Virus record (IMG/VR): IMGVR_UViG_3300031998_000043
From: a virus
Lineage: Duplodnaviria; Heunggongvirae; Uroviricota; Caudoviricetes
DNA length: 64,000 nt
Direction: 5' to 3' (one strand)
Shown piece by piece: positions 27,196 through 62,986 of this stretch. A program made the translations under genes and the position numbers. The notes beneath the pieces are model-generated. The model did no database searches, had not been told where the DNA came from, and worked only from the letters and a program-made list of their open reading frames with translations. How positions within the stretch are numbered: position 1 is the first letter of the stretch; every line of letters begins with the position of its first letter.

Positions 27196-27226
27196 TAGAA
27201 AGAGCTTTTGCTCTTTCTATTTTTTG
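27196..27226 (+). terminator. rho-independent terminator
   Basis: TAGAAAGAGC-TTTT-GCTCTTTCTA followed by TTTTTTG. Confidence 0.6.
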
Positions 27227-27247
27227 TAATTTTTATGAGTCTGTAGA

Positions 27248-27255
27248 TATATTAA
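27248..27255 (+). promoter_or_regulatory. TATATTAA promoter-like motif
   Basis: GATATATTAAAT; 43 nt upstream of the ATG. Confidence 0.5.
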
Positions 27256-27290
27256 ATAGTAGCTTAACCTTATAACAACGGAGGTCTAAT

Positions 27291-30912: not shown

Positions 30913-31191
30913 ATGGAAGCAGGAACGTTCGGTTGGGCTCTCGAACAGCTTAAGGCTGGTAAGAAAGTCCAGAGAAAAGAATGGAACGGAAAGGGTATGT
31001 TTTTGACTCTTCAACCCGGATCCATCGTCAAAGGTGAAATGATGCGTAATGAACCCGCTAGAGAGTTCTATACTGGAAAAGATTGTGTGATCCAGCCACA
31101 CATTGATATGAAGGCAGCTGATGATAGTTATACTGTCGGCTGGACGGCTAGCCAAGTTGATATGCTTGCTAGCGATTGGCAGCTTGCCTAA
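30913..31191 (+). CDS. DUF2829/Tad2-like mini-protein (candidate Thoeris anti-defence sponge)
   Basis: WALEQLKAGKKVQRKEWNGKGMFL ... GWTASQVDMLASDW matches my recollection of the DUF2829 pattern; RBS AAAGGAAAGAA-ATG. Confidence 0.5.
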   Translation: MEAGTFGWALEQLKAGKKVQRKEWNGKGMFLTLQPGSIVKGEMMRNEPAREFYTGKDCVIQPHIDMKAADDSYTVGWTASQVDMLASDWQLA

Positions 31192-31211
31192 TAACAAAAA
31201 GGAAACAAACA

Positions 31212-32831
31212 ATGGAACAAATCATAAATGCCCAAAACATCGGCATCGCCGCTGGCGTTGCTATCGTCATCATTCTGGCCATCGTATTTATCCTTGGCTA
31301 TGTTAAGGCACCTCCTGACAAGGTGTTTATCATTTCTGGTTTCCGTAAGGAGCCGAAATTCGTTACCGGAACTTCTGCGATCCGTATTCCGTTCCTTCAG
31401 CAGAAAGATGAACTGACACTCGCTCTTATTAAAGTTAACGTTGTGACTGATGAAGACATTCCGACTTCGGAATATATTAACATCAGGGTGGATTCTAATG
31501 TTAACGTGAAGATTGATAAGACAAAGCTTGCAATTGCAGCCCAGCACTTCTTAAACGCAAATGAAGGTCAAATATCTAAATTCGTGTGTGATGTTCTTCA
31601 GGGCAACCTTCGTGAAATTGTTGGTCAGATGAAACTCGAAGACATGATTAAAGACCGCACTGAGTTTAACAAGCGAGTCACTGAAAACGTCAAACCCGAC
31701 CTTGCCGCTATGGGTCTTGAACTTGTATCTTTCAATGTTCAGAACTTCTCCGACAAGAATAGTGTGATTGTGAACATGGGTATTGACAACGTAGAAACCA
31801 TTAGAAAGACTGCCGAAATTGCAAAGGCCAATGCCCAGCGTGATATTGCTGTTGCTAAGGCCAAGGCAGACCTCGAAGAAAATGATGCCCGTGTTAAGGC
31901 TGATACCACGATCGCTGAACGCAACAATGCTCTCGAAATTAAGCAGCATGAACTCAAGCAAGCAGAACAGACAAAGAAAGCCGTTGCTGACTCTGCATAT
32001 AAGATTGAGCTTGCGAACCAGCAGAAGGACATCAATGTGGCTAATGCTAAGGCTGAAACGGCAAGACAAGAACAGCTTATTCTCGTGCGTGAGAAGGAAG
32101 TTGAAGTTAAGGAAAAAGAACTTAACGCCAATGTCATCAAGCCCGCAGAAGCCGAAAAGACTGCTGTCATTCTTCAAGCTGAAGCTGCCCGTGAAGCTGA
32201 AATCATCAATGCTGATGCTAACCTTAAGAAGACCGAGAAGAATGCTGAAGCTAATCTCATCAAGGAAACTAAAGATGCAGAAGCCCAGCTTATCAAGGAA
32301 ACCAAAGACGCAGAAGCCGAACTTATCAAGAATCAGAAGGCTTCTGAAGCCAAGCGTTACAATGATGAACAGACCGCTATCGGTACTGAAGCTCTAGCCA
32401 AGGCAAATCTTGTCAAGGCTAAGAACGAAGCTGAAGGTATCGAGGCTAACGGTAAGGCTACTGCATCTGCCATTGAAGCTAAGGGTAAGGCTGAAGCTGA
32501 AGCTCTTGACAAGAAGGCAGATGCTATGAAGAAGTATGGCGATGCTGCTATCATGGATATGCAGCTTCAGGTATCCAAAGCTCTTGTTGAAAAGATGCCT
32601 GAGATCGCTGCTGCCGTTGCTGCTCCGTTTGCTAAGGTCGGTAAGATCGAAATGTATGGCTCTGGTAATACCAAGATGCTTGCAGAAGATATTACCAGCA
32701 TTATCAATCAGGTAAGCGGTGGCTTGTCTTCTACCCTTGGGATTGATGGCAAGATGTTCTTGAGCTCTGCTCTTGCAAATATTGCTACTAAGGGCGCAAC
32801 CTCTACAGCATCTGCACCTGCAAAGAAATAA
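31212..32831 (+). CDS. flotillin / SPFH (band-7) family membrane protein
   Basis: N-terminal transmembrane segment IGIAAGVAIVIILAIVFILGY; SPFH core; long Glu/Ala/Lys coiled-coil (EAxxEAE repeats); GC-enriched codon usage. Confidence 0.8.
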   Translation: MEQIINAQNIGIAAGVAIVIILAIVFILGYVKAPPDKVFIISGFRKEPKFVTGTSAIRIPFLQQKDELTLALIKVNVVTDEDIPTSEYINIRVDSNVNVKIDKTKLAIAAQHFLNANEGQISKFVCDVLQGNLREIVGQMKLEDMIKDRTEFNKRVTENVKPDLAAMGLELVSFNVQNFSDKNSVIVNMGIDNVETIRKTAEIAKANAQRDIAVAKAKADLEENDARVKADTTIAERNNALEIKQHELKQAEQTKKAVADSAYKIELANQQKDINVANAKAETARQEQLILVREKEVEVKEKELNANVIKPAEAEKTAVILQAEAAREAEIINADANLKKTEKNAEANLIKETKDAEAQLIKETKDAEAELIKNQKASEAKRYNDEQTAIGTEALAKANLVKAKNEAEGIEANGKATASAIEAKGKAEAEALDKKADAMKKYGDAAIMDMQLQVSKALVEKMPEIAAAVAAPFAKVGKIEMYGSGNTKMLAEDITSIINQVSGGLSSTLGIDGKMFLSSALANIATKGATSTASAPAKK

Positions 32832-32870: not shown

Positions 32871-32913
32871 AGAGAGGGGCCGATGCCTTTTGTGCCCCTC
32901 TCTTTTTTTTTTC
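32871..32913 (+). terminator. rho-independent terminator
   Basis: AGAGAGGGGC-13 nt loop-GCCCCTCTCT followed by ten T residues. Confidence 0.65.
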
Positions 32914-32935
32914 GTAGGTTTCTGTGATCCGAGTA

Positions 32936-32943
32936 TATATTAA
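32936..32943 (+). promoter_or_regulatory. TATATTAA promoter-like motif
   Basis: GAGTATATATTAAATA; 41 nt upstream of the ATG. Confidence 0.5.
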
Positions 32944-32976
32944 ATAAAGCGTATATCATATCAACAAGGAGGCATC

Positions 32977-34858: not shown

Positions 34859-34899
34859 AAAAAAAAAATAAATGGTCTAGACCGAAGTCTAGACCATTT
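34859..34899 (-). terminator. rho-independent terminator of the minus-strand structural gene
   Basis: AAATGGTCTAGAC-CGAA-GTCTAGACCATTT preceded on the plus strand by ten A residues. Confidence 0.6.
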
Positions 34900-34915: not shown

Positions 34916-36757
34916 TTAGTGGATGAACGTTTCCGTCGGGAGGTACGGAGAAGTACCAGCGAAGGAGTAGAAGTTCGCACTGTTGTTGGTGATCGTAACA
35001 CGACCAGCACCCGGAAGCACGTCAACGTAAGCGTAACGGCGAGAGGTGAGGATCGTCGGAACATAGGTATTTCTGGGGCTGTTGTAGCCAGAGCCAGCCT
35101 GTTCCAGCATGAAGCTGTAGGTGTACAGCTTGTAGGTCATCTGATCCTGAACAGTCGGAATGAAGAGCACACGGATGGCACCCTGAGGAATGTTCGGGGA
35201 GGACACAACCTTCCAGCTGTTGATACCCTGATACTGACCGAAGGCAATGTTAGCATTCACGCCAGCATATTCAGCCTGACCGTTGCCCTGGAACACCCAG
35301 TTGATTTCCGGCACGAGGGCGGCATCAAGCGGGTTGCAAGCAGCAACGAAGTAACCCTGTTCGTAATGGTACATGTTGATGATGCTCATGGAGAGGTGGT
35401 CGAGCACCTTGCCAAGCATCTTGGGCCATTCGGCAGGATTGAGCTGGTAGTTACCAACCGGCTTAGCAGAGAATGCACGCACGAAGTCGCCATTCGGAGC
35501 CTGTTCAATAGCGTCGTCGATAACTTCATCCATGAAGTTCACACCGTCCAAGTCCATCTTCTGAGCGAGGAAGCTAGAGAGGATTTCGACGAGCTTGGAG
35601 ACACCGTTCAGAGTGAACATACGGAGCAAGTCCGTGATGTATTCATTCGGAACCGGAGCTTCAAGGTGTTCGCCAGTACCGATGTGGATTTCCTTATCGC
35701 GGATATCGAAACCGACCTGAAGAGTGCTGTTGTTCATGACGGAGGACACGAAGGCCTTGATCATGACCCAATTCAGCTTGTCACCCTGACACATGAGGGT
35801 AAGACGACCGGACTTCACGTCAACGTCACCATACACGGAGTCCGTGAGGGTAACAATGACAGTACCAGCTTCGCCACCAACGCAAGCAGCGTCAACTTCA
35901 ACATCAACAGAGATCACACCCTTGATGCCACCACGACGAGTACCGCATTCGATCTTGCAGTTCTTGACGAGGTCATTAGCAGTGAGGGCTTCACCATTGA
36001 GGGTGAGTTCGGTAGCAAGTTCAGTAGCAACGCCATTGTAGAACACGGTGTCGCCAGCGGCAGGAGCCTTGAACTGAGCGCAAACAATAGAAACGTTCAC
36101 GTCAACTTCATCGTTGTCCTTAACCATAGCAAGAGCATCCACATACTTCTGCGTGACAGAATCAGTGTAGGTAGTCGTGGTCTTGTCATTACCGTATTCG
36201 TCCACGTCCTTACCAGTGAGGAGGTTCATGGAGAAGCAACGGTTCGTGAACTTGAACTTCACATCTTCAGCAAGGCGAACCTTAGAGACAGCGGTATCGA
36301 TGTCCATGAGGTTTTCAGGCACATAGTGCTTGTTGCCCTGAAGATCCTTCAACCACGGATGGAGGTAGTTGATGGTGAATTTCGGCTTTTCGACAGCTTC
36401 GGTCGGGAGAGCCTTGTTCATGGCAGTACGAGCCCAGCTCTTACGGAGCATCGGGGTCTGGAGGAAAGACATCGGAGCCACCGTACCGAGAGCAGCTTCT
36501 TCAAGAGCTTCGAGACGAGAGGATTCAGCGATGGTCTTGAACTGCTCGGCTTCTTCGTCATTAAGACCCTGAGCGAGCATTTCGGTGTAACGACCAAAGA
36601 GGGAGTTGTCAGACATCACATCTTTAAAGTCATCAGCATTGAACACGTTGATGTTGCTAGCGGAGAATTCTTCAGCCACTTCACGAAGAGTAGAGGTAAA
36701 GGAATCACTGCAAGCAGACACCTTCGAGGAGGGTTGCATGTAAGAAATGTTAGACAT
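34916..36757 (-). CDS. highly expressed virion structural protein (major capsid protein candidate)
   Basis: 613 aa; markedly higher GC and biased codon usage than its neighbours; RBS AAGGAAAAAGAAA-ATG; a dedicated terminator; the antisense 649-aa ORF is an artefact. Confidence 0.65.
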   Translation of the reverse strand: MSNISYMQPSSKVSACSDSFTSTLREVAEEFSASNINVFNADDFKDVMSDNSLFGRYTEMLAQGLNDEEAEQFKTIAESSRLEALEEAALGTVAPMSFLQTPMLRKSWARTAMNKALPTEAVEKPKFTINYLHPWLKDLQGNKHYVPENLMDIDTAVSKVRLAEDVKFKFTNRCFSMNLLTGKDVDEYGNDKTTTTYTDSVTQKYVDALAMVKDNDEVDVNVSIVCAQFKAPAAGDTVFYNGVATELATELTLNGEALTANDLVKNCKIECGTRRGGIKGVISVDVEVDAACVGGEAGTVIVTLTDSVYGDVDVKSGRLTLMCQGDKLNWVMIKAFVSSVMNNSTLQVGFDIRDKEIHIGTGEHLEAPVPNEYITDLLRMFTLNGVSKLVEILSSFLAQKMDLDGVNFMDEVIDDAIEQAPNGDFVRAFSAKPVGNYQLNPAEWPKMLGKVLDHLSMSIINMYHYEQGYFVAACNPLDAALVPEINWVFQGNGQAEYAGVNANIAFGQYQGINSWKVVSSPNIPQGAIRVLFIPTVQDQMTYKLYTYSFMLEQAGSGYNSPRNTYVPTILTSRRYAYVDVLPGAGRVTITNNSANFYSFAGTSPYLPTETFIH

Positions 36758-36989
36758 TTTCTTTTTCCTTATATTTTAGGTGAATTTCAGAACCAAAACA
36801 TAATGTTATCTTGGCTCTTAGACAAAATACCTATTTGTGCTAGGATCCTAGGCATTTTCAATGAATAGTTAGATGGGGGTAGAATTTTGCGAGCAAAAAT
36901 TGTAAGTTTTTTGCGTATCTAGATGTGCAACGAAAAGTATTGATTTATCGAATGAACTTTTAATAAATACGATAACCAAGGAGCCCATC

Positions 36990-39324: not shown

Positions 39325-39762
39325 TTACTGAATTGGTCTGTTTCTTAGTTGGCTAATCTTATGCTTATTGATTTCTATCACTGCGTGCTGAATTACATTG
39401 AATTCGCCAGTTACATAAGAAACAAGGTTTTCCATTGTACCTAAATAAATAAGAAGGATTTGTCTGTAAGTGTCAGAAACCTCGGAAATAGTCTCTGTTA
39501 CCAACTTAGCAATATCCATCATGCTCTTTGCAGAGCTTACAATATCAGTTTGGTCACTATTTTTTGCAATAGCAGAAGTAATGGCTACATAGTGCTTTAC
39601 CTTCTTATTAATGATCTCGGACATGAGAGCAAAATCACGCTCCTTGTTCAGACCATACTTCAATAGGTAACTGTTCCTCAGTTTCGCTGCTGCTATTGCT
39701 TGTTTCTTCGCTCTGCGTTTCGCAAAGAAATTCTTTATCCACTTGAACATTGGTTTCTCCAT
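39325..39762 (-). CDS. hypothetical protein
   Basis: 145 aa; overlaps the 3' end of the next gene by 128 nt. Confidence 0.45.
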   Translation of the reverse strand: MEKPMFKWIKNFFAKRRAKKQAIAAAKLRNSYLLKYGLNKERDFALMSEIINKKVKHYVAITSAIAKNSDQTDIVSSAKSMMDIAKLVTETISEVSDTYRQILLIYLGTMENLVSYVTGEFNVIQHAVIEINKHKISQLRNRPIQ

Positions 39763-40438
39763 TTTGGTTAGTTATCTGAGTAATTCGTTCAACATGCCTA
39801 GGCATAATTCTAAGTTTCCTGATATTAGAATTATTTAGGCTTTCAGAAGCTGATGCTTTGACCAAAAAAGAAAGACGCTCTAAGTCCTCTTTAGTCATTA
39901 CATAAGCAAATTTCTTAACAAAGGCTTGCCAGTCTCCAGTTACATTTTTTAGTGAAAGAGTAATAGAACCACTATGAGCCAGTTCATGAGCAGTCAATGA
40001 TAGAGGAATTAAACCAACATGGCCTAGGAAGTGTTCCAATACTACTCTAGATACAATAGCAAAACTAGATACATCTTCATTATTTTCTAGAGCATCATCA
40101 AGAATAATTCTCGTAATGTCAAATAAAGAAAACGGGAAATGATGAATCTCTATTCTACAATCCTCTCTGGAAACTCCAGCGAAGATTGCACAATTATTCA
40201 TTTCTGCATTTTCTTTAAGGAAAGACAAATAGTCACGCAGTTCTAGAGAACCTCTTACAAGTCTTTCAAGATACTTAACATATTTAGCTTTTGCTTTATA
40301 GTCTTCTTTCAGATATGCCAATGTTTCAAACTTGGCATATCCGTCGAATTTATCAGTATCCTTAAAAGTAACCTTAGACGACAACTCGTTAGAAGTCGTG
40401 GTTTGGGTAGGTTGCTCTAAGTCCTTGGGTAATTGCAT
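39635..40438 (-). CDS. hypothetical protein; paralog A of the His-motif pair
   Basis: IEIHHFPFSLFDI ... LSLTAHELAHSG; homologous to 40591..41319. Confidence 0.5.
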   Translation of the reverse strand: MQLPKDLEQPTQTTTSNELSSKVTFKDTDKFDGYAKFETLAYLKEDYKAKAKYVKYLERLVRGSLELRDYLSFLKENAEMNNCAIFAGVSREDCRIEIHHFPFSLFDITRIILDDALENNEDVSSFAIVSRVVLEHFLGHVGLIPLSLTAHELAHSGSITLSLKNVTGDWQAFVKKFAYVMTKEDLERLSFLVKASASESLNNSNIRKLRIMPRHVERITQITNQNGETNVQVDKEFLCETQSEETSNSSSETEEQLPIEVWSEQGA

Positions 40439-40619
40439 ATTTTTCCTGTTTCGTTGGGTTAATGATTGAGATACTACGGGTCTCTGGATTTACCTCAAAA
40501 CCAAATCGTCTGGCGTCTTCTATCATTTTTGGCGTGATTTGTTCTCCAATGAGGCTATAAAGAACTTGTACACGATCCATTAATATTGGATTAATCAGTT
40601 GGAACGGATCCCTCAGCAC
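40389..40619 (-). CDS. hypothetical small protein
   Basis: 76-aa ORF bridging the two paralogs. Confidence 0.3.
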   Translation of the reverse strand: MLRDPFQLINPILMDRVQVLYSLIGEQITPKMIEDARRFGFEVNPETRSISIINPTKQEKYAITQGLRATYPNHDF

Positions 40620-41319
40620 TATTATATCCTACCTTTGGAATCTCTGACGGAGCATAGATATCCTGATGTTTGACTGTTAGAAAAGATTGATCTCTATTCA
40701 TTTTATATCCTTTCTTAGTCATATCAATTAACTTCGAGAAACTTGTGAGAGTCTCCGGCTCAAGGTCTTCCTTATACTCCTTAAAGAACTCCATAAAATG
40801 ACCAGCAACATCAGATAGAGGAATAAATACTTTTCCGCTATGTCTGAGTTGATGAACAGTCTTTGATAGGACAGTAAATCCGATTTTGAGATCGAAATGT
40901 AGTTTCATTACTACTTCGGCTACCATAAATGTATTAAACGGAACATGCTCTCTAATAAATTTACTGGTAACAGCAGAACAGATTTCATACAAGGTAAATG
41001 GATAGTGGTCTACTTCAAGAGTAGCTTCTTCTCCAGTAACCATTCCAAGGATATTACAAGATTGAATTCCAGAACCGCCAAATTCATTATGCACTTTGTA
41101 AATAAAAGTCTTGTATTCATCAGACTGTCTAATCATTTTTTCACAAGACTTAATGAATGTATTATATTCTCTAGAATCTAGAATTTTCTCTCTTTTGAAT
41201 ACTTCTTTAAAATAATCACCAGATACGGCACCATCTTTATGGGTAACATTGATAGGATTTTCAACCTTAATGTTAGCCGAAACAATTTCTTCAATGGGAT
41301 CCATAATATCTCCTTTCAA
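40591..41319 (-). CDS. hypothetical protein; paralog B of the His-motif pair (possible His-Me finger fold)
   Basis: LEVDHYPFTLYEI ... LSKTVHQLRHSG. Confidence 0.55.
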   Translation of the reverse strand: MKGDIMDPIEEIVSANIKVENPINVTHKDGAVSGDYFKEVFKREKILDSREYNTFIKSCEKMIRQSDEYKTFIYKVHNEFGGSGIQSCNILGMVTGEEATLEVDHYPFTLYEICSAVTSKFIREHVPFNTFMVAEVVMKLHFDLKIGFTVLSKTVHQLRHSGKVFIPLSDVAGHFMEFFKEYKEDLEPETLTSFSKLIDMTKKGYKMNRDQSFLTVKHQDIYAPSEIPKVGYNSAEGSVPTD

Positions 41320-41773: not shown

Positions 41774-42511
41774 ATGTCTGAAGAAACTCAGAAAGTCCAA
41801 GAAGTCATTCCGGAAGCAGTTGATATGGCTGCTGAAAACGAACAGCGCAAGGTGAATGCCGAGCAAGAGCGTGAATATGCTATTAAGCATATGATCGAAA
41901 TCTACAAGGGCGAAACCTTGAAACATATCGAAGTCACAAAGGGATACTATAAGACTTTGTTCTTTGAATTGCAGAAGCGTATGACGGAGTCTGGAAAGGG
42001 TATTCCCAACTTTGATAAGTCTGCTATGGAATATTTTGAAAACGTCACTTCTCACCATGATGAAGACAAACTCAACAATCCTGAGACTACCAAGTATCTT
42101 GCTCTTCGTCACTTTAATCATACTACAAATGGTGAATTCCGTTTGTCTGAAGAAGAACAGGAAAAGGGTGAAGAACTCATCCGTCAACATCGTATCTCCA
42201 ATACACACCATGTTGAATGCGGTATGTTCCATCTTGCCAGATGCACCACTTTTGGCGAGAACAAGACTCCGTTTAAGTATAACTACTTTGCACTGATGGA
42301 AATGGCAGCTGACTGGTGTTCTGTTGCTGAAGAACTTGGTGTGGATGTCATTCGCTGGTTTAGAACCCAGTTGAAGCGTGGAGTTTACGTTCTTCCGGAT
42401 GAAGTCATCGACACTCTTGAAGAATTCGCAAGGATTCTTAAGCCATTTCTTGATGAGAACAGGAAGCTTTGCAGGTTTGGTTTGCATCAGCCTGACCACT
42501 GCATCAAGTAA
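41774..42511 (+). CDS. hypothetical protein
   Basis: RBS ACAGGAGTACAAC-ATG; 245 aa. Confidence 0.55.
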   Translation: MSEETQKVQEVIPEAVDMAAENEQRKVNAEQEREYAIKHMIEIYKGETLKHIEVTKGYYKTLFFELQKRMTESGKGIPNFDKSAMEYFENVTSHHDEDKLNNPETTKYLALRHFNHTTNGEFRLSEEEQEKGEELIRQHRISNTHHVECGMFHLARCTTFGENKTPFKYNYFALMEMAADWCSVAEELGVDVIRWFRTQLKRGVYVLPDEVIDTLEEFARILKPFLDENRKLCRFGLHQPDHCIK

Positions 42512-42566
42512 ATAACTTATAGCTGAAGAGAAATCTTCAGCTATTATTTTATAATGTGAGGATTTT

Positions 42567-43212: not shown

Positions 43213-43295
43213 GTTAACTAACCATTGAAATACGGGTCGCGACCGAAGAAACCTGTAATTCTCTAAACGTTTAACTTACAAACAAGGATATATAT
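43213..43295 (+). promoter_or_regulatory. conserved leader or regulatory element (copy 1) with palindromes GGTCGCGACC and AAACGTTT
   Basis: about 85% identical to 44409..44492, located upstream of the duplicated gene. Confidence 0.5.
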
Positions 43296-44366
43296 ATGTA
43301 CTTTGACAAATTTATTGACGGCTCTTATGCCGCCTCTGAAAGCGTTTCGCACATCGATATTCTCACCTCTGCTTTGGAAGGTGCTGAATTCGCTGCTGAT
43401 GCTGAAATTGCTCTCATCGAAGAAGATGGTCGTCTCTGCATGACTGTTGGCGCTGAAGGTATTGGTGACGCTATGGCTGCTGTGGCTGACAAGGCCAAGG
43501 AAGTTGGTACCAAGATCTGGAAGTGGCTTGTCGAATTCGTTCGCAAGGTTCGTGCTTTCGTGTCTCAGGCTATTATCTCCCTTCGTAATGGTGCTATTGT
43601 TAACACCCTTAAGAAGATTATGGCTAAGTCCAAGGCTAAAGCCAAAAACGACGAATGGAAGGAAAATGCTCCGAAGCCGGAACGTGTGACCAAGTGGAAC
43701 GTTGATGTGCAGCGTGCTCTCAATGGTATTTGGTTCATTTCTGATGCTGCTATTGACAAGCTTAAGATGGCTAGTGAGGAGGCCGAGAAAAAGCTGGACA
43801 AAGCTGCCAGCAAGACTACTGCCTTTGGCTCTGATAGAGATTACAATGGTGGCCCAGATGATGATGGAACGTTTAGAGCCATCCTCGCAGAAATTCCCCA
43901 GATCACGGATGAGGAAGGTCACAGACCATACGACAGGCATTGGAACAAGGGCACTACCAAAACCACTAATACCAAGTGGCTAGAACGTGTTGGCAACGAT
44001 GTTGTTGCCCTTTTCAAGCTTGATTCTGAATCCAAAAATGACCAGATCATCGAAAAGGCTGTCAAGATTGCTAATGGTATTATCAATCGCATGAGAAGAG
44101 ATCCTATCATGGAAATTTATAATACCCTAAAGGTTCTTGATACTGAAGTTGATATTGTTAAGAAGCTTTGCTCTGATGCTGGTAAGGATGGTGCTAGAGA
44201 ACTTAAGAAGATCAAGAAGTTCCAGAAGATTATCTCTAAGGTCGGTACCACTTGCACGCTCTTCTGTCGTCGTCAGCTTGGTTCCTACAAGAAGCTCACT
44301 GCTCTTACGATGCGCCTGTTCTCTATGGCTGGTTCTATGGAGAAGGAAGACTATAACGAAGACTAA
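43296..44366 (+). CDS. duplicated Ala/Lys-rich helical protein, copy 1 (highly expressed; possibly a structural or scaffold protein)
   Basis: 356 aa; the N-terminal ~150 aa and C-terminal ~45 aa are near-identical to copy 2; GC-enriched codon usage. Confidence 0.7.
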   Translation: MYFDKFIDGSYAASESVSHIDILTSALEGAEFAADAEIALIEEDGRLCMTVGAEGIGDAMAAVADKAKEVGTKIWKWLVEFVRKVRAFVSQAIISLRNGAIVNTLKKIMAKSKAKAKNDEWKENAPKPERVTKWNVDVQRALNGIWFISDAAIDKLKMASEEAEKKLDKAASKTTAFGSDRDYNGGPDDDGTFRAILAEIPQITDEEGHRPYDRHWNKGTTKTTNTKWLERVGNDVVALFKLDSESKNDQIIEKAVKIANGIINRMRRDPIMEIYNTLKVLDTEVDIVKKLCSDAGKDGARELKKIKKFQKIISKVGTTCTLFCRRQLGSYKKLTALTMRLFSMAGSMEKEDYNED

Positions 44367-44408
44367 TGTCTTTTAATATCACTTTACACCTGTAAAGTGA
44401 TATTTTTT

Positions 44409-44492
44409 ACTAACTATCCATTGAAATACGGGTCGCGACCGAAGAAACCTGTAGATTTCAAAACGTTTAACTAACAAAACAAGGATACATAT
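44409..44492 (+). promoter_or_regulatory. conserved leader or regulatory element (copy 2)
   Basis: CCATTGAAATACGGGTCGCGACCGAAGAAACCTGTA...AAACGTTTAAC...ACAAGGATA. Confidence 0.5.
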
Positions 44493-45569
44493 ATGTACTT
44501 TGATAAATTCCTCGACGGCTCTTACGCCGCCTCTGAAAGCGTTTCGCATATCGACATTCTCACCTCCGCCCTTGAAGGTGCCGAATTTGCCGCTGATGCC
44601 GAAATTGCTTTGATTGAAGAAGATGGTCGTCTTTGCATGACGGTTGGTGCCGAAGGCATTGGTGATGCTATGGCTGCCGTGGCTGATAAAGCCAAGGAAG
44701 TTGGTACCAAGATCTGGAAGTGGCTTGTTGAATTCGTTCGCAAGGTTCGTGCTTTCGTCTCTCAGGCTATCGTTTCTCTTCGCAATGGTGCTATCATTAA
44801 CACCCTCAAGAAGATTATTGCCAAGGGTAAGACCAAGGCTAAGAATGACGAATGGAAGGAAAATGCTCCGAAGCCGGAACGTGTGACCAAGTGGAACGTT
44901 GATGTGCAGCGTGCTCTCAATGGTATTTGGTTCATTTCTCAGGCTGCTGTTGACAAGCTCATGGCTGCAAACTCCAAGCTTGCTAAGAAGGCTGATAAGG
45001 CTGAAGCTAAGACTGCTTCCTTCGGCGCTGACGGTAGAGGTGCCAATCCTGGTGCTACCGATGATGATGGAACGTTCGAAGCCATCCTTGAGGAAATTCC
45101 CAAGATCAAGGATGAAGAAGATCACAATCCCTACAGCAGACATAGCGGACTGGGCGATACCAAGACCACTAATACTAAGTGGCTTGAAAGACTTGGACCC
45201 GAGATGGCTAAGATGTTTAAGCTTGACTCGGAAGAACCCAATGAAAGGATCATCAACAAGGCTTTGAACTTGGCCAATACGACCATCAATAAGATGAAGA
45301 ATGATCCTATCCTTAAGATGTATGATGCACTCAAGGTTCTTGATACCGAAGTTGCTATTGTCAAGAAGCTTTGTGCAGATGCCGGTAAGGATGGCGCTAA
45401 GGAACTCAAGAGAATCAAGAAGTACCAGAAGGCTGTGTCCAAGGTTGGTACGACTTGCACGCTCTTCTGCCGTCGTCAGCTTGGTTCCTACAAGAAGCTC
45501 ACTGCCCTCATTATGCGTCTTTACTCTATGGCTGGTTCTATGGAGAAGGAAGACTATAACGAAGACTAA
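44493..45569 (+). CDS. duplicated Ala/Lys-rich helical protein, copy 2
   Basis: 358 aa; tandem paralog of 43296..44366. Confidence 0.7.
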   Translation: MYFDKFLDGSYAASESVSHIDILTSALEGAEFAADAEIALIEEDGRLCMTVGAEGIGDAMAAVADKAKEVGTKIWKWLVEFVRKVRAFVSQAIVSLRNGAIINTLKKIIAKGKTKAKNDEWKENAPKPERVTKWNVDVQRALNGIWFISQAAVDKLMAANSKLAKKADKAEAKTASFGADGRGANPGATDDDGTFEAILEEIPKIKDEEDHNPYSRHSGLGDTKTTNTKWLERLGPEMAKMFKLDSEEPNERIINKALNLANTTINKMKNDPILKMYDALKVLDTEVAIVKKLCADAGKDGAKELKRIKKYQKAVSKVGTTCTLFCRRQLGSYKKLTALIMRLYSMAGSMEKEDYNED

Positions 45570-45664
45570 GTTTGGCTTTGTTTTTATCGCTTCTGATAAA
45601 CCTATAAGGGTAAAACCTTATAGGTTTATTTTATTGAACTCATGATTGAAAGAAAGAGGTTTTT

Positions 45665-46057
45665 ATGGACTTGAAAGAATTTGAAAATCTCTCTGTAGAG
45701 GATAAAGAAATCCTAATGGAGATTCTTAATGATACTATGGATATTTTTAGAGAATATCCTGAAAATGAAGATGATGAAAAGCTTCCTGAAGCTAATGAAG
45801 GTGTGATGATTAAGCGTATGAACTGGACTACGCAGGGTGTTATTGATAAAAAGGTATCCAAAGTCTGTGTTCTTCTTGCTAAGTCTAATGGTGACCCGCT
45901 ATATGAAAGATTTAAGTTCTTCAAAACAAAATGGAGATTCTTCAGAGAGAAGATCCGTATGAAATATGGTGGAAGAGCCAGAGCTATTGTGCTTTCTAAT
46001 GGTGGTGTTAATGCTACCGATCTCGGTGAAGCTGTCAAGGCTGCCTTACACAAATAA
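45665..46057 (+). CDS. hypothetical protein
   Basis: RBS AAGAGGTTTTT-ATG. Confidence 0.5.
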   Translation: MDLKEFENLSVEDKEILMEILNDTMDIFREYPENEDDEKLPEANEGVMIKRMNWTTQGVIDKKVSKVCVLLAKSNGDPLYERFKFFKTKWRFFREKIRMKYGGRARAIVLSNGGVNATDLGEAVKAALHK

Positions 46058-52898: not shown

Positions 52899-53630
52899 TT
52901 AGTCAATATCTGGAACAAGAGATACAGGAAGAAGATCCGAATCAGTAATAGTGTCAGTCTTGACACCTGCGCCAATCATGTACGTATCAAAGGTATTTAA
53001 AGCAACCTTTTCGAATACAGAGGATCCCTCTTGAATATCTTTCAAGTTTACATAGCCATCGGCTTGAATCTTCTCATACATAATTCTCTTGGCACCCATA
53101 TTATCGCTTCGTGCGCCCATGAGTTCATTAAGAGTGGCTTCATTCTGCTGAAGGATAAGGGCATAAGATTCAACGTCAGAGTTTCTGGCAACCTTGGAAT
53201 CAGAAGTAACAGTACCGGTAAGCTGGTTTCTCTTATCAATATCAAGAGTCACACCAGACTTATGGGTCACAACCTGTTCAAGTCTCTTAATGGACAGATA
53301 GATTACAGGAACTCTAGTAGCTGTACGGACAAACTGTCCATCGCTATTCTTCTGGTCTCTGAAGTATACATATTCTTCCATAGGAATGTTAAGTATCTTC
53401 AAAGCTTTTTCGATCTGATTGAAATCAGGTTCATTCTTAAATGGAAGAACTTCAAGCCTAAAGTTAGCATCCTTATCAGCAAGAAACTTGTTCATCCAAG
53501 TATTGAACTGTGCATCGCTCATTTTGTTAAACATCGTGCGATACTTTTCAGTATTCTCACCAGTCTTGTCAAGAGTGCTCATCACACTATATACAAGATC
53601 TTCTACTTTCTTTCTTTTTCCGGTACTCAT
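52899..53630 (-). CDS. hypothetical protein, transcribed divergently from the terminase gene
   Basis: 243 aa; RBS on the minus strand AAAGGAGTCTTCTA-ATG. Confidence 0.55.
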   Translation of the reverse strand: MSTGKRKKVEDLVYSVMSTLDKTGENTEKYRTMFNKMSDAQFNTWMNKFLADKDANFRLEVLPFKNEPDFNQIEKALKILNIPMEEYVYFRDQKNSDGQFVRTATRVPVIYLSIKRLEQVVTHKSGVTLDIDKRNQLTGTVTSDSKVARNSDVESYALILQQNEATLNELMGARSDNMGAKRIMYEKIQADGYVNLKDIQEGSSVFEKVALNTFDTYMIGAGVKTDTITDSDLLPVSLVPDID

Positions 53631-53692: not shown

Positions 53693-55663
53693 ATGACAAT
53701 GAAACTTTCAGACTTGGCAGCCCGTAAAGTTTCATATCAGTTAACTAAAAATACTAGCTTTCTAAGAATGCATACATTCTTGAAAGAGAAAGGAATCAAG
53801 AACAATAAGTTCTTTCTAGTATTGTACGATAAAGACCTTGAAAATGTTGATCCACGGGCTGACAATCTCTCTAAAGAGATAAAAGCCAAGATTATTACTG
53901 AATGTAGAGTAAACCCTTGGTACTTCATCAGAGAAGTAGTAAGAATCCCTGTTCCGGGTGGTGATATTCCATACGAACTTCATCGTGGTAATCTTGCATT
54001 GAATTTTCTATCACTGAACAATATCGATACTATCGTTCTCATGCCTAGACAGCATGGTAAAACGATCGGTGCCGTGGTATTGTTTGTCTGGCTTTTCTTT
54101 TTTGGCACTAAGAACACTACTGTAACCTTCATGAACAAGAAGTACAGCGATGCTCAGGTTAACCTTAAGAGATTCAAGAATATTGTTGAACTTATTCCGA
54201 AGTGGATGATTGAACCGAGAAGTCCTAGAGAAGATCAAGAGTCTTCTACAACCTTCTCTAGAATGAATAGACTTCATAATACAATTACGGCTATGCCAGC
54301 TGCTACTTCTCCTGAAGATGCTGATAAACTTGGTCGTGGTCTTACGATGCCTTGCTGGTACTTTGACGAAATTGCGTTTGCCAAATATAATGAGATCATC
54401 TATACGGCTGCTGCTCCTGCTGTCTCTCAAGCTGCTATCGAAGCTGAAAAGACTGGAGTGCCGCACTTCAAACTGTTTACAACTACGCCTAATTCTATTG
54501 ACGTAGATGAAGGTGGTTGGTGCAAGCATGAAGTGATTGAAGCTGCTTGTGAATTTGATGAAGAGATGTACGATGTACCTCCTGAACTACTCAAAAAATA
54601 TGTGTATGATAGATCTACCAATAACTTCGTCCATATTGAATTTACTTGGAAGGAACTTGGCAGAGATGAAAAATGGTATGAACAACAGTGTAGAGATCTC
54701 CAGTACAATAGACAAAGAATCAAGAGAGAAGTGGATCTTGAATGGACGCTTTCTGCTGATAAGTCTCCATTCTCTGAAGAAGAACTTGAAAAGGTTTCTA
54801 ACTTCATTATTCCTAAAGAAAGAGAATATACTCTTCGAATTGGCGATGAAGGAAATCATAAGTTCACAGTTCTTGAGCAGATGGACTTCCATGATCCTGT
54901 AATATTGGCAGTTGACGTTGGCGGTGGACAAGGATCAGACTTCTCCGTTGTTCACATGCTTGATATTGATGACTTCCACGAGAAAGGATATTTTGCTTCT
55001 AATCGAATAAATCCCATACCATTCGCTAGAATCATTATATCAATAGTACAAAACCTATTCTATAATTCCGTTTTGATAGTGGAACGAAACAGTTATGGTC
55101 TAGATGTCATTACTACACTACTTGAAAGTAATGTAACCAGAAACAAAGTCTTCTATAGAACAATCAATAATCCTATTCCTAATCAGGGAAATAAGATTCA
55201 GAGAGTTTATGGAATTGATACTACGTCTGGATCTAGAGAAATAATGATATCTAATTGCTTTATGTATGTGGCTGATGAGCCTCATCTATTTAGATGTAGG
55301 AATACATACAATGAACTAAAGACTATGGAAAGAAAATCTAACGGAAAAGTGGAACATGCTACAGGTGCTCACGATGACTTTGTAATGTCTTTCTTGATTG
55401 GTCGCTATGGAGCTACATTTGATAGCTTTAAGATGTTCAAGAGAAGAGTATGTGCATCATCGCTTAGAGAACGCCGTAATGTTGCCGTTCAAGAAGAGAA
55501 GGAAACTACCATTAAGGACTCTGTAAGAAGTGTGGAAGAGTTCTACACCAAAGAAGACTCTAAAATGAGAAAGATCTTCTCTCTTAACTTTGATAATCAG
55601 CCGAACTCTTTACTGAAAAACAATAATAAAGGATTTGAATCATGGGTAAATACAAAGAATTAG
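53693..55663 (+). CDS. terL: terminase large subunit
   Basis: ATPase Walker A MPRQHGKT and Walker B WYFDEIAF; C-terminal RNase-H-like nuclease motifs ILAVDVGGGQGSDFSVV and TGAHDDFVMS. Confidence 0.85.
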   Translation: MTMKLSDLAARKVSYQLTKNTSFLRMHTFLKEKGIKNNKFFLVLYDKDLENVDPRADNLSKEIKAKIITECRVNPWYFIREVVRIPVPGGDIPYELHRGNLALNFLSLNNIDTIVLMPRQHGKTIGAVVLFVWLFFFGTKNTTVTFMNKKYSDAQVNLKRFKNIVELIPKWMIEPRSPREDQESSTTFSRMNRLHNTITAMPAATSPEDADKLGRGLTMPCWYFDEIAFAKYNEIIYTAAAPAVSQAAIEAEKTGVPHFKLFTTTPNSIDVDEGGWCKHEVIEAACEFDEEMYDVPPELLKKYVYDRSTNNFVHIEFTWKELGRDEKWYEQQCRDLQYNRQRIKREVDLEWTLSADKSPFSEEELEKVSNFIIPKEREYTLRIGDEGNHKFTVLEQMDFHDPVILAVDVGGGQGSDFSVVHMLDIDDFHEKGYFASNRINPIPFARIIISIVQNLFYNSVLIVERNSYGLDVITTLLESNVTRNKVFYRTINNPIPNQGNKIQRVYGIDTTSGSREIMISNCFMYVADEPHLFRCRNTYNELKTMERKSNGKVEHATGAHDDFVMSFLIGRYGATFDSFKMFKRRVCASSLRERRNVAVQEEKETTIKDSVRSVEEFYTKEDSKMRKIFSLNFDNQPNSLLKNNNKGFESWVNTKN

Positions 55664-58535: not shown

Positions 58536-58687
58536 TAGGATCTTAGAAAATTTTACGGAACATAGAAACCTCATTCTTCAAATCTAGAAACTTTAAAATT
58601 TAACAATCGTTACAGGAACTCTAAAATGAGCATCGATATTTCATAAATGTCTATGAATATTAACTTTAGCATACAAGGAGGCCAATA

Positions 58688-61600
58688 ATGGCTGCAGATT
58701 CTCTACCGAAATATATGCACCCGCATTCGAGTGCACGTATTATCGATAATGCCGTTCTGACTGTCTCGTCTAGCGGCTTGACTAATATGTTCATTGCCCT
58801 TGAAGCTGAAAAAGGTATGCCGAATGAAGCCACTTATATCACTACTCAGAGTGAGTGGATTTTCAACTTTGGTGAACCTAACTACAGCAAATATGGTCAA
58901 GGTGCTTTGAATGCACTGAATTACATCAACGCCGGTGGTGGTGCTTGGGTGATTCGTGTTGTTCCTGATGATGAAAGATTTGCTTCTCTGTCGCTTGGCA
59001 TTGGCTTCCGCAAAGATCAGGCCTTTACTAACGATCAGGAAAAGTATCGTCGTCTTGAAATGACTTCTGAACAGATCAAGATCTGGAACGCAGCCCAGAC
59101 TGATGAAAATCAGAAGATTGCTATTGATAAGAAGTCTGGTAACTTCGCTATCATGCCTCTCTTCTACATTGAAGAAAATGGTAGCATCAATACGGCTCTC
59201 AAGCTTCAGACGATGGATGAAATTGAGCTCTACAAGCTCAAAAATAAGGATGCTAGCAAGGTTATCAATGCTGTTGCCAAGAAGAACGTGGTGACGTATT
59301 CTAATCCTTACATTGAAGTGTCCGGTGTGTTTGATCTTGGTCTGGAAAATGCTATTCCGACTAAGAAGCATAAGGCTAATCCCGCACAGCCTGAATTCAC
59401 TGAAGATGAACCGATTGAAAACGTTGCCTTCTCCAATCCGACGAATGAAACTTGTGATGCATACATTCGCATTGACAAGTACTTCGTGACTAATGGTGCT
59501 GGTGAAGCCATTATTGAAAATGGTAGAATCGCTACTTTCGATTACTACGATATGGCTAAGACCAAGGCTGCTGCCTACATTGATGACAGCACGGATGAAG
59601 AAGAGGAAGAGGATAAGCCGGAAGATCACATCTTCGCTTACTCTGCCACGATTCGTATCTATGCTAATGCTGCATCTGCTGAAGGTGAATACGGTCAGAT
59701 TATCTTTGATGTCTTGAGTAATCTCTTTGGTGCTGTTGTTGGTGCTGAAGCTCAGACCTTTATCAAGGAGCTGAACGGCAAGGCCAGCTTTGCTGACGGT
59801 ATCTACAATGGCAATAAGCACACTACGAAGTGGTTGCAGGATAACCGTAACGAGTTCTCCAATGCCAGAACCGTTTTCAAGAAAGTGAGACCTGAATCCT
59901 TCTTCGGTGGTGTTGAAAGTGAAGGTCATGTTTCTAGAATCAATACCAAGATTCTTCTCAACATTGGTACTCCTGATTCCTCGACTTGGAGCTACTCCTT
60001 CGAAGTATATAAGGAAGGCCTTGAAGGTCAGTTTATTCCTGTTCAGGCTGCTCTGATTGACAATAATACTGCCTTTACTGAAGTTGAGCTTCTGGAATGG
60101 AATGCCCTCCACGATCTCGACTACAGACTTGGTGGAAAGGCTGATGAAGAATTCCCCGATGAATATGTCATTGGTGAAGGTCAGATCAACCTCGTTAATC
60201 GTGAAGCTACCACTGGTGCTACCAAGAATTCTGTGCTTTACTATGTGAAGTACATCACCAGCAATGAGCCGGTCTACTCGACCTCGATTACGATGGCTGA
60301 GGCTTACAGATTCAATCGTGTTAAGGCTAACTCTGAAGATGAAGTTTGTTCTCTCTCTTCTGAAGCTACCTTTGCACCTACTTCGATGAATACGAAGTAT
60401 GCTAGCCTCCTTAACACTAAGGCTGCTTTCAGTGCAGACGTTAGCACCGATATCCATTGGCAGATCGATCAGGGTAGCATTGAAGATGTCCTGACTCGTG
60501 TTGAAGCTATTGAGTACGTCAATTTCTTCTACAATACTCCGGGTCTGATTTCTCTTGAAGCTCATACCTCTGGTGGTGAAGAACTTGTTGATGTTACAAT
60601 CGATACTTCTGCTGTCATTACGGAAAGTGCATACAATTCCATCAAGGATACTTCCCTCGGTAATCTCTTTGAAAAAGTTAGTGCAGGTGTCGAAGATGAT
60701 GAAGGTGATGAACTGACTGATGAAAATAGCGAAGCCATCACTAACGAAGATTACGAAGAAGGCACTGTTACCTATACTCTTAGGAAGAACATCGAAGCTT
60801 CTGAACTTCCGTTCAGCTTTGTTTCCAAGGTGCTTGTTGGTGGTTGTCTCCAGCCTGTTACTATCAATAACATTCCCGTGACCAAGACTCTGTCTTTGCT
60901 CATCAAGGGAAGAGAGTCTGGTAAGGCTGAACTTGACACTGCCCGTCCTGATGGTAATGCTTATGGCGATCCGTACTACTTCGAATTTGCCAATGCTACA
61001 GTATTGCTCTCTGGTATTGATTCCTTGACTGGTTTCAATGGCACGTTTGCTCTGCACTTTGTTTCTGACTCTATCGAAAACCTTGCTCTCAAGGCTTACG
61101 ATATTGCTGTCATGGATGAAGCTACATCGATCACTGCTAGCCAGATTCCTGGTGAGAAAGTCGCATATGTCAGATTCTATGACAACTTTGATGGTTCTAT
61201 CTTTGAACCTAACTATGACTATATTGAACGCGTCTATGACACTGTTGGTCTTGTAACCACTACGTTCACTTCTTATGAACTTGAAGAGAAGGTCTATTCT
61301 CCCTACACCATCATTGATGGTATCAAGATTAAGAATACTGAAGTATGGAACAACATTGACGAAGCCAAGGAAGGCTATGTCATTGGTGCAGCTCGTGACG
61401 AGATCACCGATGTCGATATTCAGGAAATGAAGCTCGACAAGACCTGCGTCGCTGAGTTCTGTCGTTTCTTGCCTAAGGGTTCCGGTAAGTGGTACAACCG
61501 TCTTGGTGTGTCGCTCTCCTATGACGATAACTATGATGGAACGTATCCGGATTGGAGCATGTTCAAGCTCACTATCTTCGAAAGAAGCAATGGTGAAGAG

Positions 61601-62986
61601 ATCTCTCGCGAACAGTTTGCTGTCGCTTTGGATCCTGATGCTGTGTCTGCTACCAAGGAAAGCCTCTTCATTGAAGATGTCGTTAACACCTACTCGTCTT
61701 ACCTGACTTGTGTGGTGAACTACGATAACCTCCAGAACTTTGTTGAAACCAAGCTTGCCGTTAAGGATGATGCTGGTAAGGTTGTGGAAGATGAAGATGG
61801 TAATGAAATCTTGGTTAAGGTTGATACCGTTATCAAGTACATCTTCAACCGCATCGATCTCGATGACTTCAACAAGAGAACGTTTGGCGACGATTACCAG
61901 ACCAACGAGTACAGTAAGTATGCTTTCACTTCGCTCATGAGCGTGACTGGCGTTGATGAAGAGGGTTGTGCCTTTGATACTTCTCGCTACAATAGTGATA
62001 GCCTCTATGAATATACTGAACCGTTCAATTCCTTCTGGATCTTCAACACTGTCTCTGCTGCTGCTTCCCTCTACTTGGGTGGTGGTTCTTATGGCAATGG
62101 TTGGGAACATGCCTATGAAGATGAGGAAGGTAATCCTCAGTACACGAGCTCCTTGACTCAGGCTCTCGTAAGGGCTTACAGTGGCGTGACGGATCCGTTC
62201 ATCACGAACACGAACCTTTGCGAATTCGACCTTATGTTCGATGCTAACTACGATACCGATGTTCGCACGGCTATGACTAAGCTGGCCTCTGAAACTCGTC
62301 AGGACTGCATTGTCTTGCTCGATCAGGGTCTGTCTATTGCCAATGCTACTCAGGCTATTGACAAGAGAAAGAACGAAGAAAACTTCGATACCTTCTATGC
62401 TGCTCTCTTCACCCAGCATCTTGTGGTGAGCGATGTGTGGTCTGGTAAGGTCATTAAGGTTACTCCGACATTCTTCCTTGCTTCCAAGATTCCTTCGAAC
62501 GATACCGCTAACGGTAAGACGATGAACTTCGTTGGCCCCCGTCGTGGTACGATCGGTGGGTTCCGCAGCATTTCGTATATGCCTACGGCTTATGAAATGA
62601 GCGAACTCTACAAGAATCAGGTGAACTACATCGAACGTGATGCTCTCGGTGTGTTCTTCGCTACTGAGCTTACCACTCAGGTTAAGAATACTCCTCTCAC
62701 GTTGATCCATGCTGTTCGTGCTATCTTGTCTCTGAAGAGAGACTTCCTGAAGATTAGCCGTAACTACCGTAGTGAATATGCTACTGGTGCTGTTCAGGCT
62801 AACTTGATGGGCGAACTCAACGCATGTGCTGCTGAATACATCCTTCAGGGTGCGTTCAAGTACATCACGCCGAAGATTGCCTCTACGGACTACGATGTCC
62901 AGCAGAGAATCTGCCGCATTGATGTATCTGTGGCCTTCGTTGACATCATGGAACGCTTCGTGTTCTCCTTCGTTGTTGAACGCTAA
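58688..62986 (+). CDS. tail sheath protein (giant, 1432 aa)
   Basis: the N-terminus SEWIFNFGEPN...ALNYINAGGGAWVIRVV parallels T4 gp18 (VDLVNTFGQP...AMNFLQYGNDLRVVRAV); RBS CAAGGAGGCCAATA-ATG; GC-enriched. Confidence 0.75.
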   Translation: MAADSLPKYMHPHSSARIIDNAVLTVSSSGLTNMFIALEAEKGMPNEATYITTQSEWIFNFGEPNYSKYGQGALNALNYINAGGGAWVIRVVPDDERFASLSLGIGFRKDQAFTNDQEKYRRLEMTSEQIKIWNAAQTDENQKIAIDKKSGNFAIMPLFYIEENGSINTALKLQTMDEIELYKLKNKDASKVINAVAKKNVVTYSNPYIEVSGVFDLGLENAIPTKKHKANPAQPEFTEDEPIENVAFSNPTNETCDAYIRIDKYFVTNGAGEAIIENGRIATFDYYDMAKTKAAAYIDDSTDEEEEEDKPEDHIFAYSATIRIYANAASAEGEYGQIIFDVLSNLFGAVVGAEAQTFIKELNGKASFADGIYNGNKHTTKWLQDNRNEFSNARTVFKKVRPESFFGGVESEGHVSRINTKILLNIGTPDSSTWSYSFEVYKEGLEGQFIPVQAALIDNNTAFTEVELLEWNALHDLDYRLGGKADEEFPDEYVIGEGQINLVNREATTGATKNSVLYYVKYITSNEPVYSTSITMAEAYRFNRVKANSEDEVCSLSSEATFAPTSMNTKYASLLNTKAAFSADVSTDIHWQIDQGSIEDVLTRVEAIEYVNFFYNTPGLISLEAHTSGGEELVDVTIDTSAVITESAYNSIKDTSLGNLFEKVSAGVEDDEGDELTDENSEAITNEDYEEGTVTYTLRKNIEASELPFSFVSKVLVGGCLQPVTINNIPVTKTLSLLIKGRESGKAELDTARPDGNAYGDPYYFEFANATVLLSGIDSLTGFNGTFALHFVSDSIENLALKAYDIAVMDEATSITASQIPGEKVAYVRFYDNFDGSIFEPNYDYIERVYDTVGLVTTTFTSYELEEKVYSPYTIIDGIKIKNTEVWNNIDEAKEGYVIGAARDEITDVDIQEMKLDKTCVAEFCRFLPKGSGKWYNRLGVSLSYDDNYDGTYPDWSMFKLTIFERSNGEEISREQFAVALDPDAVSATKESLFIEDVVNTYSSYLTCVVNYDNLQNFVETKLAVKDDAGKVVEDEDGNEILVKVDTVIKYIFNRIDLDDFNKRTFGDDYQTNEYSKYAFTSLMSVTGVDEEGCAFDTSRYNSDSLYEYTEPFNSFWIFNTVSAAASLYLGGGSYGNGWEHAYEDEEGNPQYTSSLTQALVRAYSGVTDPFITNTNLCEFDLMFDANYDTDVRTAMTKLASETRQDCIVLLDQGLSIANATQAIDKRKNEENFDTFYAALFTQHLVVSDVWSGKVIKVTPTFFLASKIPSNDTANGKTMNFVGPRRGTIGGFRSISYMPTAYEMSELYKNQVNYIERDALGVFFATELTTQVKNTPLTLIHAVRAILSLKRDFLKISRNYRSEYATGAVQANLMGELNACAAEYILQGAFKYITPKIASTDYDVQQRICRIDVSVAFVDIMERFVFSFVVER

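Follow-up and report, generated by a model that had tools for sequence, protein, structure and literature searches.

Two adjacent genes in a 64,000-nucleotide (nt) stretch of DNA from IMG/VR virus record IMGVR_UViG_3300031998_000043 (Caudoviricetes), which we call the window throughout, encode two versions of an orphan protein family. We refer to this family as X, to the first tandem gene as copy A and to the second as copy B; related contigs are labeled L001 to L019. The explanation that we favor, with somewhat better than even confidence, is that the two genes are tandem orphan-gene paralogues in a jumbo phage of the AR9 type, that each is a self-contained late unit, that their product is a head-internal precursor, and that two copies are kept for dosage.

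Copy A spans positions 43296-44366 and copy B positions 44493-45569, both on the plus strand, and they encode 356 and 358 amino acids (aa), respectively, as an earlier preliminary description of the region had reported. A BLASTP alignment of the full-length proteins gives 80% identity with two gaps of one residue each, and the genes diverge at approximately 19% of bases. The preliminary description held that the first 150 or so and the last 45 or so residues are near-identical and that the middle is completely different. The conserved ends are as it described them: identity is 95% over residues 1-150 and 88% over residues 291-356, and 3 of the final 45 positions differ. The difference in the middle (residues 151-290) was overstated, because this segment aligns colinearly at 61% protein identity and 70% DNA identity. 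The ratio of nonsynonymous to synonymous substitution rates (dN/dS) is 0.058 in the first segment, 0.40 in the middle and 0.13 in the last. Differences in the conserved parts are mostly synonymous, and because dN/dS is low and synonymous divergence (dS) is 0.5-0.8 in every part of the gene, we read the duplication, as had been suggested, as old and under purifying selection. Mutagenesis of the kind produced by diversity-generating retroelements can be ruled out, again in line with the earlier account: the 127 mismatches in the middle region carry no adenine bias (adenine in copy A at 40 and in copy B at 37), and all 12 substitution types are present among them.

The 81 nt preceding each ATG (43215-43295 and 44411-44492) are 91% identical, including a 36-nt exact block, so that the shared leader of about 80 nt noted previously is real, and with the same control region before both copies the two genes are likely to be regulated in common, as was also proposed. 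Flanking sequence beyond the repeat is unrelated (36% identity further upstream and 46% past the stop codons). Each leader contains a Shine-Dalgarno sequence, AAGGA, that we read from the sequence at 43284-43288 for copy A, where it is kept in all relatives, and at 44481-44485 for copy B, both on the plus strand. The codon adaptation index is 0.71 for copy A and 0.74 for copy B, compared to 0.80 for the capsid gene, 0.72 for the sheath gene, 0.60 for the next gene downstream and a window median of 0.39. The codon usage is thus like that of structural genes, and the high expression that the preliminary description had assumed is consistent with a codon bias equal to that of capsid and sheath. 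Judged from this bias, X is probably a very abundant product, comparable to those two proteins.

To judge from its genes, the window belongs to the genome of an uncultured AR9/PBS1-type jumbo myovirus that carries a split multisubunit RNA polymerase. We make this assignment because the terminase, the capsid, an RNA polymerase fragment, the gene order and the size of the relatives all agree. For the large terminase (53693-55663), identity to the proteins of Bacillus phages Goe21, BpSp, PBS1 and AR9 is 41-42%, and there are further matches in Staphylococcus S6-like and phiKZ-like phages. The capsid gene is the minus-strand open reading frame (ORF) at 34916-36757, whose protein is 29-30% identical to those of AR9, PBS1, Staphylococcus S6 and Listeria LPJP1; a plus-strand ORF at 34919-36868 was rejected as a gene in its favor. 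A fragment of an RNA polymerase beta subunit, recognized by a PHROG match (52899-53630, minus strand), adjoins the terminase and is the sole subunit gene identified in the window. It lies in the same place as the RNA polymerase gene beside the AR9 terminase, and the order of polymerase fragment, terminase, two genes, virion protein and sheath is that of AR9. The sheath gene (58688-62986) encodes 1432 aa, versus 987 aa in AR9. Contigs of relatives in IMG/VR measure 235-242 kb.

The conserved block before both copies opens with AACTA(A/T)CCATTG. This promoter-like motif reads AACTAACCATTG for copy A (43216-43227) and AACTATCCATTG for copy B (44412-44423), and it recurs as AACTCATGATTG (45637-45648) before the next gene (130 aa, 45665-46057), where it is followed by a short 17-nt leader; all three are on the plus strand. 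For comparison, the capsid gene on the minus strand has the motif AACTATTCATTG and a 102-nt leader with a palindrome, CTAGGATCCTAG, and two stem-loops (36757-36870). The extended form AACT-N6-TGAA occurs at 21 sites in the window, compared to an expectation of 5.0 +/- 2.4, and none of 100 shuffled sequences reached 21. Most of these sites lie 12-30 nt ahead of a Shine-Dalgarno sequence and ATG, and the genes that they precede include those for the terminase, the capsid and virion proteins, among others. At the X genes of relatives, AACT-N6-TG is invariant. The late promoter consensus of AR9 is AACA-(6N)-T(A/G), with the last base as the transcript start (PMC5312081). Because the motif resembles this consensus and is over-represented before genes, we infer that AACT-N6-TG is this phage's variant of the AR9 late promoter; by the same analogy, transcription would start at its final G, that is, at G43227 and G44423.

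Two other candidate promoters were rejected. No sigma-70-like site was found in the X leader, and AACA-N6-TA immediately before the ATG was discarded because the Shine-Dalgarno sequence would then be lost. The motif also touches the annotation of other genes. In the DNA polymerase, DUF5662 and 242-aa ORFs (46915; 41747; 41319, minus strand), the first ATG or TTG overlaps the TG of AACT-N6-TG; translation probably begins at the following ATG, which has a Shine-Dalgarno sequence ahead of it and which in the polymerase ORF, for example, is M9. Elsewhere in the window, a 46-nt intergenic repeat is present in three copies (22230-22275, 27213-27258 and 32901-32946) that end in (G/T)ATATATTAAATA. These repeats resemble the AT-rich early promoter of AR9, used by the virion RNA polymerase, AAATATATATTAT-(6N)-G, and are possibly the early promoters of this phage.

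Measured from these putative starts, the 5' untranslated regions (UTRs) of X (69-70 nt), capsid (102 nt) and sheath (approximately 62 nt) are the longest among the motif-preceded genes; the leaders of the others are mostly 12-27 nt, with one of 43 nt. The three genes with the longest leaders also show the strongest codon bias. In copy A, the first 35 nt or so from the presumed +1 position are predicted to form a stem-loop (43227-43261, plus strand) with the stem GAA.UACGGGU / ACCUGUA.UUC and the loop CGCGACCGAAGAA; its minimum free energy (MFE) is -11.1 kcal/mol, it accounts for 82% of the ensemble, and its z-score is -2.6. The corresponding stem-loop of copy B lies at 44423-44459 (plus strand), and the copy B leader folds at -15.9 kcal/mol (z = -3.0). 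The fold is conserved. In relatives, the distal strand AUCCGU replaces ACCUGU, and seven consensus pairs are kept through exchanges between G-C and G-U. The pairing is preserved only if G-U pairs count, which indicates that the conserved element is RNA rather than DNA. In the distant L014 clade, whose proteins are 31-40% identical, a 12-bp stem of different outer sequence, GGAUAA.UCGGU / ACCGG.UUAUCC, occupies the same place. Within that group the leaders of L014a and L018a are identical over the compared upstream stretch, even though their proteins are just 48-82% identical. The capsid leader likewise has a 5' stem-loop, which embeds the 12-bp palindrome, followed by a second hairpin; of its 20 consensus pairs, 3 show compensatory double changes among 4 relatives. 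As a side observation on the sheath gene, AACTCTAAAATG lies approximately 72 nt upstream of it (58610-58690), and its leader contains ATCGAT and a hairpin near the 5' end.

Hairpins at the 5' end stabilize bacterial mRNAs, as in the leaders of Escherichia coli ompA and papA and Bacillus subtilis aprE (PMC3997798). By analogy, we take the X leader to combine a promoter with an mRNA-stabilizing hairpin, rather than to be an operator. A scan of the leader against Rfam matched no family; the lone sub-threshold match, at 42500-42554 (E = 0.47), was unrelated. Several observations weigh against this interpretation. In close relatives the X stem shows wobble changes alone, with no double compensatory change, and the replacement of the stem in the L014 clade is a single event. 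The folding z-scores of whole leaders are moderate, from -1.2 to -3.0. The start site, and hence the position of the stem at the very 5' end, is placed by analogy with AR9. Finally, the stem-loop model leaves unexplained the self-complementary center of a palindrome embedded in the leader and the invariant loop sequence GACCGAAG.

Each unit also appears to have its own intrinsic terminator. After copy A, a 13-bp hairpin with a T-run lies at 44375-44410 (plus strand; MFE -14.4 kcal/mol, z = -6.1), and after copy B, a 15-bp hairpin (AAACCUAUAAGG..) with a U-rich tail lies at 45595-45637 (plus strand; z = -4.5). Terminators of the copy B type are kept after the last or sole copy in relatives. In all three two-copy lineages the terminators between the copies have common ATCACT...AGTGAT stems, and a different type, likewise conserved, follows the last copy. 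Because the between-copy terminators are alike in three lineages, there are hints that the two-copy state itself is old. Separately, a terminator-like hairpin (GGTCTACCTTCAGGTAGGCC with a T-run) occurs in four near-identical copies after successive small genes at 20533-20571, 21404-21442, 22202-22240 and 22651-22689.

The preliminary description had proposed a comparison of copy number and middle-segment diversity across related phages. Relatives carry one or two copies of the X gene: tandem pairs are present in the window, in L001/L016 and in L014/L018/L019, and single copies in L002-L007, L008, L009/L010 and L011. In L014, L018 and L019 the second copy (L014 2873-3982) is approximately 30% identical to the first and lacks 33 residues at its N-terminus; in place of the long leader, a short AACT-N6-TG promoter immediately precedes the Shine-Dalgarno sequence. 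The middle segment of X evolves fast throughout the family, with 33-60% identity between lineages whose flanks are 72-90% identical. In other words, the variable middle is a fast-evolving, partly disordered segment of the whole family and is not peculiar to the A/B pair. A scan of metagenomes added just short fragments of already known lineages.

Copies of X from one genome resemble each other most closely in the flanks. The longest exact match between A and B is a 93-nt tract (43650-43742 and 44847-44939, plus strand), with no synonymous differences in approximately 29 codons compared to a background of 0.25 per codon; L011 does differ there synonymously. The synonymous divergence of A from B is 0.25, and that of each copy from L011 is 0.30-0.35. 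Because the flanks are most alike within a genome and the 93-nt tract lacks synonymous change, the tract is probably the product of recent gene conversion.

The X family is very narrow, since so few clusters were found among billions of proteins. Neither copy matched PHROGs, Pfam (E <= 0.01) or NCBIfam; single-sequence and profile searches of PDB sequences found no match, nor did megablast and tblastn searches of 50,697 phage records. Homologues were found in 7 clusters in a search of 5.8 billion proteins and in 3 clusters in an exhaustive profile search of 1.84 billion representatives; the family comprises approximately 10 sequence clusters, from metagenomes only. All recoverable gene contexts are alike: RusA, further genes, DUF5662, a gene of 137-152 aa, X, a 130-aa gene, a 250-aa gene and DNA polymerase. 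The conserved neighbor downstream of X matches a PHROG annotated as a virion structural protein.

AlphaFold models X as an elongated bundle of helices, the longest reaching 75 residues (pLDDT 62.7, pTM 0.61), in keeping with the helical protein of the preliminary description. The model is disordered at residues 1-56 and 173-226, with pLDDT below 50 over the latter. Residues 1-56 are acidic (pI 4.05) and very conserved, while residues 57-356 form a basic helical core (pI 9.4). Just ahead of the ordered core, at residues 52-54, is a G/A-(A/S)-E motif, present in 10 of 10 family members, whose glutamate (position 54) does not vary. The head protease of phiKZ cuts (S/A/G)-X-E sites, which this motif resembles. 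In phiKZ itself, the minor capsid proteins that the head protease cleaves include gp86 (PMC11297242).

A Foldseek search of the model against PDB and BFVD gave no match at E <= 0.001, and the structure matches lean to virion proteins of phiKZ-like phages. Profile comparison of the X family by hhalign gave probabilities below 1% for phiKZ gp86 (0.65%), gp89 and gp90 and for the AR9 virion protein gp095; in this comparison, the homologue search used to build a profile for gp86 returned gp86 itself alone. X also had no Pfam match to the PhiKZ_gp86 (PF25617) or phiKZ_IP (PF12699) profiles, and no match to the PHROGs. With moderate to low confidence, we propose that X is synthesized as a precursor and is an abundant protein of the head interior or the inner capsid. 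This tentatively narrows the earlier suggestion of a scaffold, decoration, fiber or internal protein to the last of these, or to the inner capsid.

The palindromes that the preliminary description had singled out in the leader need separate consideration. The 10-bp perfect palindrome GGTCGCGACC is indeed present in both leaders, at 43235-43244 and 44431-44440 (plus strand), and nowhere else in the window, and it falls within the predicted stem-loop of each copy. In copy A its left half would lie in the stem and its right half in the loop, which it shares with an invariant GAAG. As a palindrome it is not unusual, since the window contains 82 perfect palindromes of at least 10 bp compared to approximately 78 in shuffled sequences, and we rejected a general enrichment; GGTCGCGACC is noteworthy because it is conserved, not because it is palindromic. 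The second palindrome, AAACGTTT (43265-43272 in copy A, plus strand), is likewise found in both leaders, and among the relatives is conserved in the closest, L011, alone. The others carry AAACTTTT, GAACTTTT or AAATCGTT at its position, and the palindromy of AAACGTTT probably has no function. A scan of viral contigs for ACGGGTCNNGACCGAAGAA found nothing beyond the known contigs, save unrelated chance matches with non-palindromic centers. We also considered GACCGAAG as a motif shared between genes and rejected it: the copy at 34880 sits in the terminator hairpin of the capsid gene, and further copies at 35236 and 36397 are within the capsid coding sequence. That terminator hairpin (34871-34897) reads GGTCTAGACC GAAG TCTAGACC and includes GGTC-TA-GACCGAAG; its resemblance to the core of the X leader is merely that of a terminator stem with a tetraloop.

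The conservation of the first palindrome raises the alternative that GGTC-NN-GACC is a double-stranded DNA operator just past the start site, through which a dimeric regulator of the phage or its host represses or times both copies. We regard this as improbable. The palindrome is perfect and kept in every lineage, its center is GC, AT or CG by lineage and yet self-complementary in all, and the neighboring GAAG does not vary; an RNA hairpin would not require such a center, because the center bases lie in the loop. The self-complementary center and the invariant loop therefore leave room for a role as a DNA operator, in RNA binding or in dimerization. Nevertheless, a center that stays self-complementary across two changes has a chance of approximately 1/9 and is weak evidence, palindromes of this kind occur in the window at chance frequency, and the change from ACCUGU to AUCCGU, with its dependence on G-U pairs, points to RNA. 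The capsid leader has the same layout with a different palindrome in the same relative place, and a single sequence-specific protein therefore cannot explain both leaders. No candidate regulator was identified. Of the protein or RNA-structure operator envisaged in the preliminary description, a palindromic operator explains the leader less well than an AR9-like promoter followed by a 5'-terminal RNA stem-loop. A more speculative proposal, which we think quite improbable, is that the palindromes and loop in the leaders of the most codon-biased late genes form a post-transcriptional control device, and that X represents an unrecognized class of abundant basic, DNA-associated head-internal proteins with an acidic pro-region, specific to a rumen/gut-type lineage of AR9-like phages. 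The elements of such a device would be GGUCGCGACC and GACCGAAG in X, CUAGGAUCCUAG in the capsid leader and possibly AUCGAU in the sheath leader. It could be the binding site of a phage RNA-binding factor, or could act through loop-loop dimerization of RNAs, and would coordinate the main building blocks of the virion.

Other alternatives concern the protein and the reason for two copies. X could be abundant but located outside the mature head, as a discarded scaffold, a non-virion late protein (a filament or cytoplasmic structure) or a DNA coat of replicated genomes. We consider this unlikely, though a discarded scaffold or an abundant non-virion protein is the main alternative to a head-internal X. 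The late-type promoter, structured leader and codon bias place X with capsid and sheath, and the downstream neighbor and the leaning of the structure matches described above both point to the virion. A basic core with an acidic N-terminal extension is, moreover, nearer to internal proteins than to typical acidic scaffolds. It has also been suggested, in the preliminary description, that the copies are alternative forms of one protein; in one version of this idea they differ in function and the middle is under diversifying selection (for example, for host range or anti-defense) rather than relaxed constraint. The middle does evolve much faster than the flanks in all lineages, and middles can be mosaic: that of L001b is 60% identical to L011 and 44% to L001a, while L001a and L001b share 85-86% identity in the flanks. 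However, its dN/dS in the A/B pair is well under 1, much of it is predicted to be disordered, and the mutation pattern is neither A-biased nor otherwise targeted. The promoter, leader and codon bias are common to both copies, so that nothing suggests a switch between them; the copies look co-expressed instead, and we find separate functional forms very unlikely. As for an assembly artifact, which the preliminary description named as the finding that would overturn it, the DNA divergence and the different terminators of the two copies are hard to reconcile with a falsely expanded repeat, both proteins are on record in a pair of contigs that come from two sources, and relatives that were assembled independently (L001 and L016; L014, L018 and L019) have two copies as well. 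An artifact is so improbable that we set it aside.

We return to the explanation that we prefer, two late units encoding a head-internal precursor. A promoter of the phage-RNA-polymerase type, AACT-N6-TG, would drive each copy from its final G. The resulting 5' UTR would begin with the stem-loop, most likely a shield against 5'-end-dependent mRNA decay that thereby increases output, as in ompA and aprE; a strong Shine-Dalgarno sequence, the coding sequence and the terminator would complete each unit. The acidic, disordered N-terminus of approximately 55 residues, ending at the G/A-(A/S)-E motif, would be trimmed by a prohead protease. The trimmed protein would be an elongated and basic bundle of helices, broken by a disordered segment that evolves fast, and would be analogous to gp86 and the internal head proteins of phiKZ or to the internal proteins of T4. 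The two copies probably reflect dosage together with mild divergence of the least constrained segment, and gene conversion may partly homogenize them.

Two further features of the window lie outside this system. It encodes an SPFH/flotillin-type protein with Band_7 and Flot domains (31176-32831) and a Stealth CR2 protein (1799-3607), both unusual cargo for a phage; we take Stealth CR2 to be a family of sugar-phosphate transferases in capsule synthesis. Another tandem pair of paralogues, at 39635-40438 and 40591-41319 on the minus strand, matches phrog_12252, a group of unknown function.

The analysis provides a promoter consensus, AACT-N6-TG, that can now be tested in an uncultured branch of AR9-like phages with their own multisubunit RNA polymerase, and it indicates that long structured leaders are common to the most codon-biased late genes of this phage. 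An orphan and apparently very abundant family of about ten metagenomic clusters becomes a candidate major component of the head interior. These results are of use in annotating such phages, including the correction of several start codons. The chief remaining interest lies in the conserved palindrome and loop, which the proposed mechanism does not account for and whose design is held in common with the capsid leader.

The closest parallels to X lie in the heads of other phages. The genes for the inner-capsid, vertex-binding protein gp86 of phiKZ (PDB 8y6v chain G, PF25617) and for the tandem internal head proteins gp92-gp96 (with their neighbor gp97) encode proteins with no detectable sequence similarity to X, and they differ from it in size and genomic context. 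The internal proteins IPI-IPIII of T4 are abundant, basic and head-internal; cleavage after a glutamate removes their conserved N-terminal targeting or pro-sequence, and their genes vary in number and sequence among related phages. The T4 pro-sequences are approximately 10-20 residues long, compared to approximately 55 in X, and the T4 proteins are smaller and unrelated in sequence.

The control region also has precedents. Like the AR9 late promoter, the motif consists of a four-base element, a six-base spacer and T followed by a purine, and it is enriched just upstream of late and structural genes, in a phage whose genes for capsid, terminase, sheath and split RNA polymerase are AR9-like. It differs in its fourth base, which is T here and A in AR9, and in its start purine, a G that is followed by AA or GA. 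Promoter recognition in AR9 needs uracil in the template strand. As in the ompA, papA and aprE leaders, a stable hairpin is predicted at the presumed 5' end of a long leader, before an apparently very highly expressed gene with a strong ribosome-binding site; here, by contrast, the loop GACCGAAG and the embedded palindrome are more conserved than a protective hairpin requires. Taken as a whole, the architecture of tandem paralogues, phage promoter, 5' hairpin and terminator follows known principles and is not a new kind of system.

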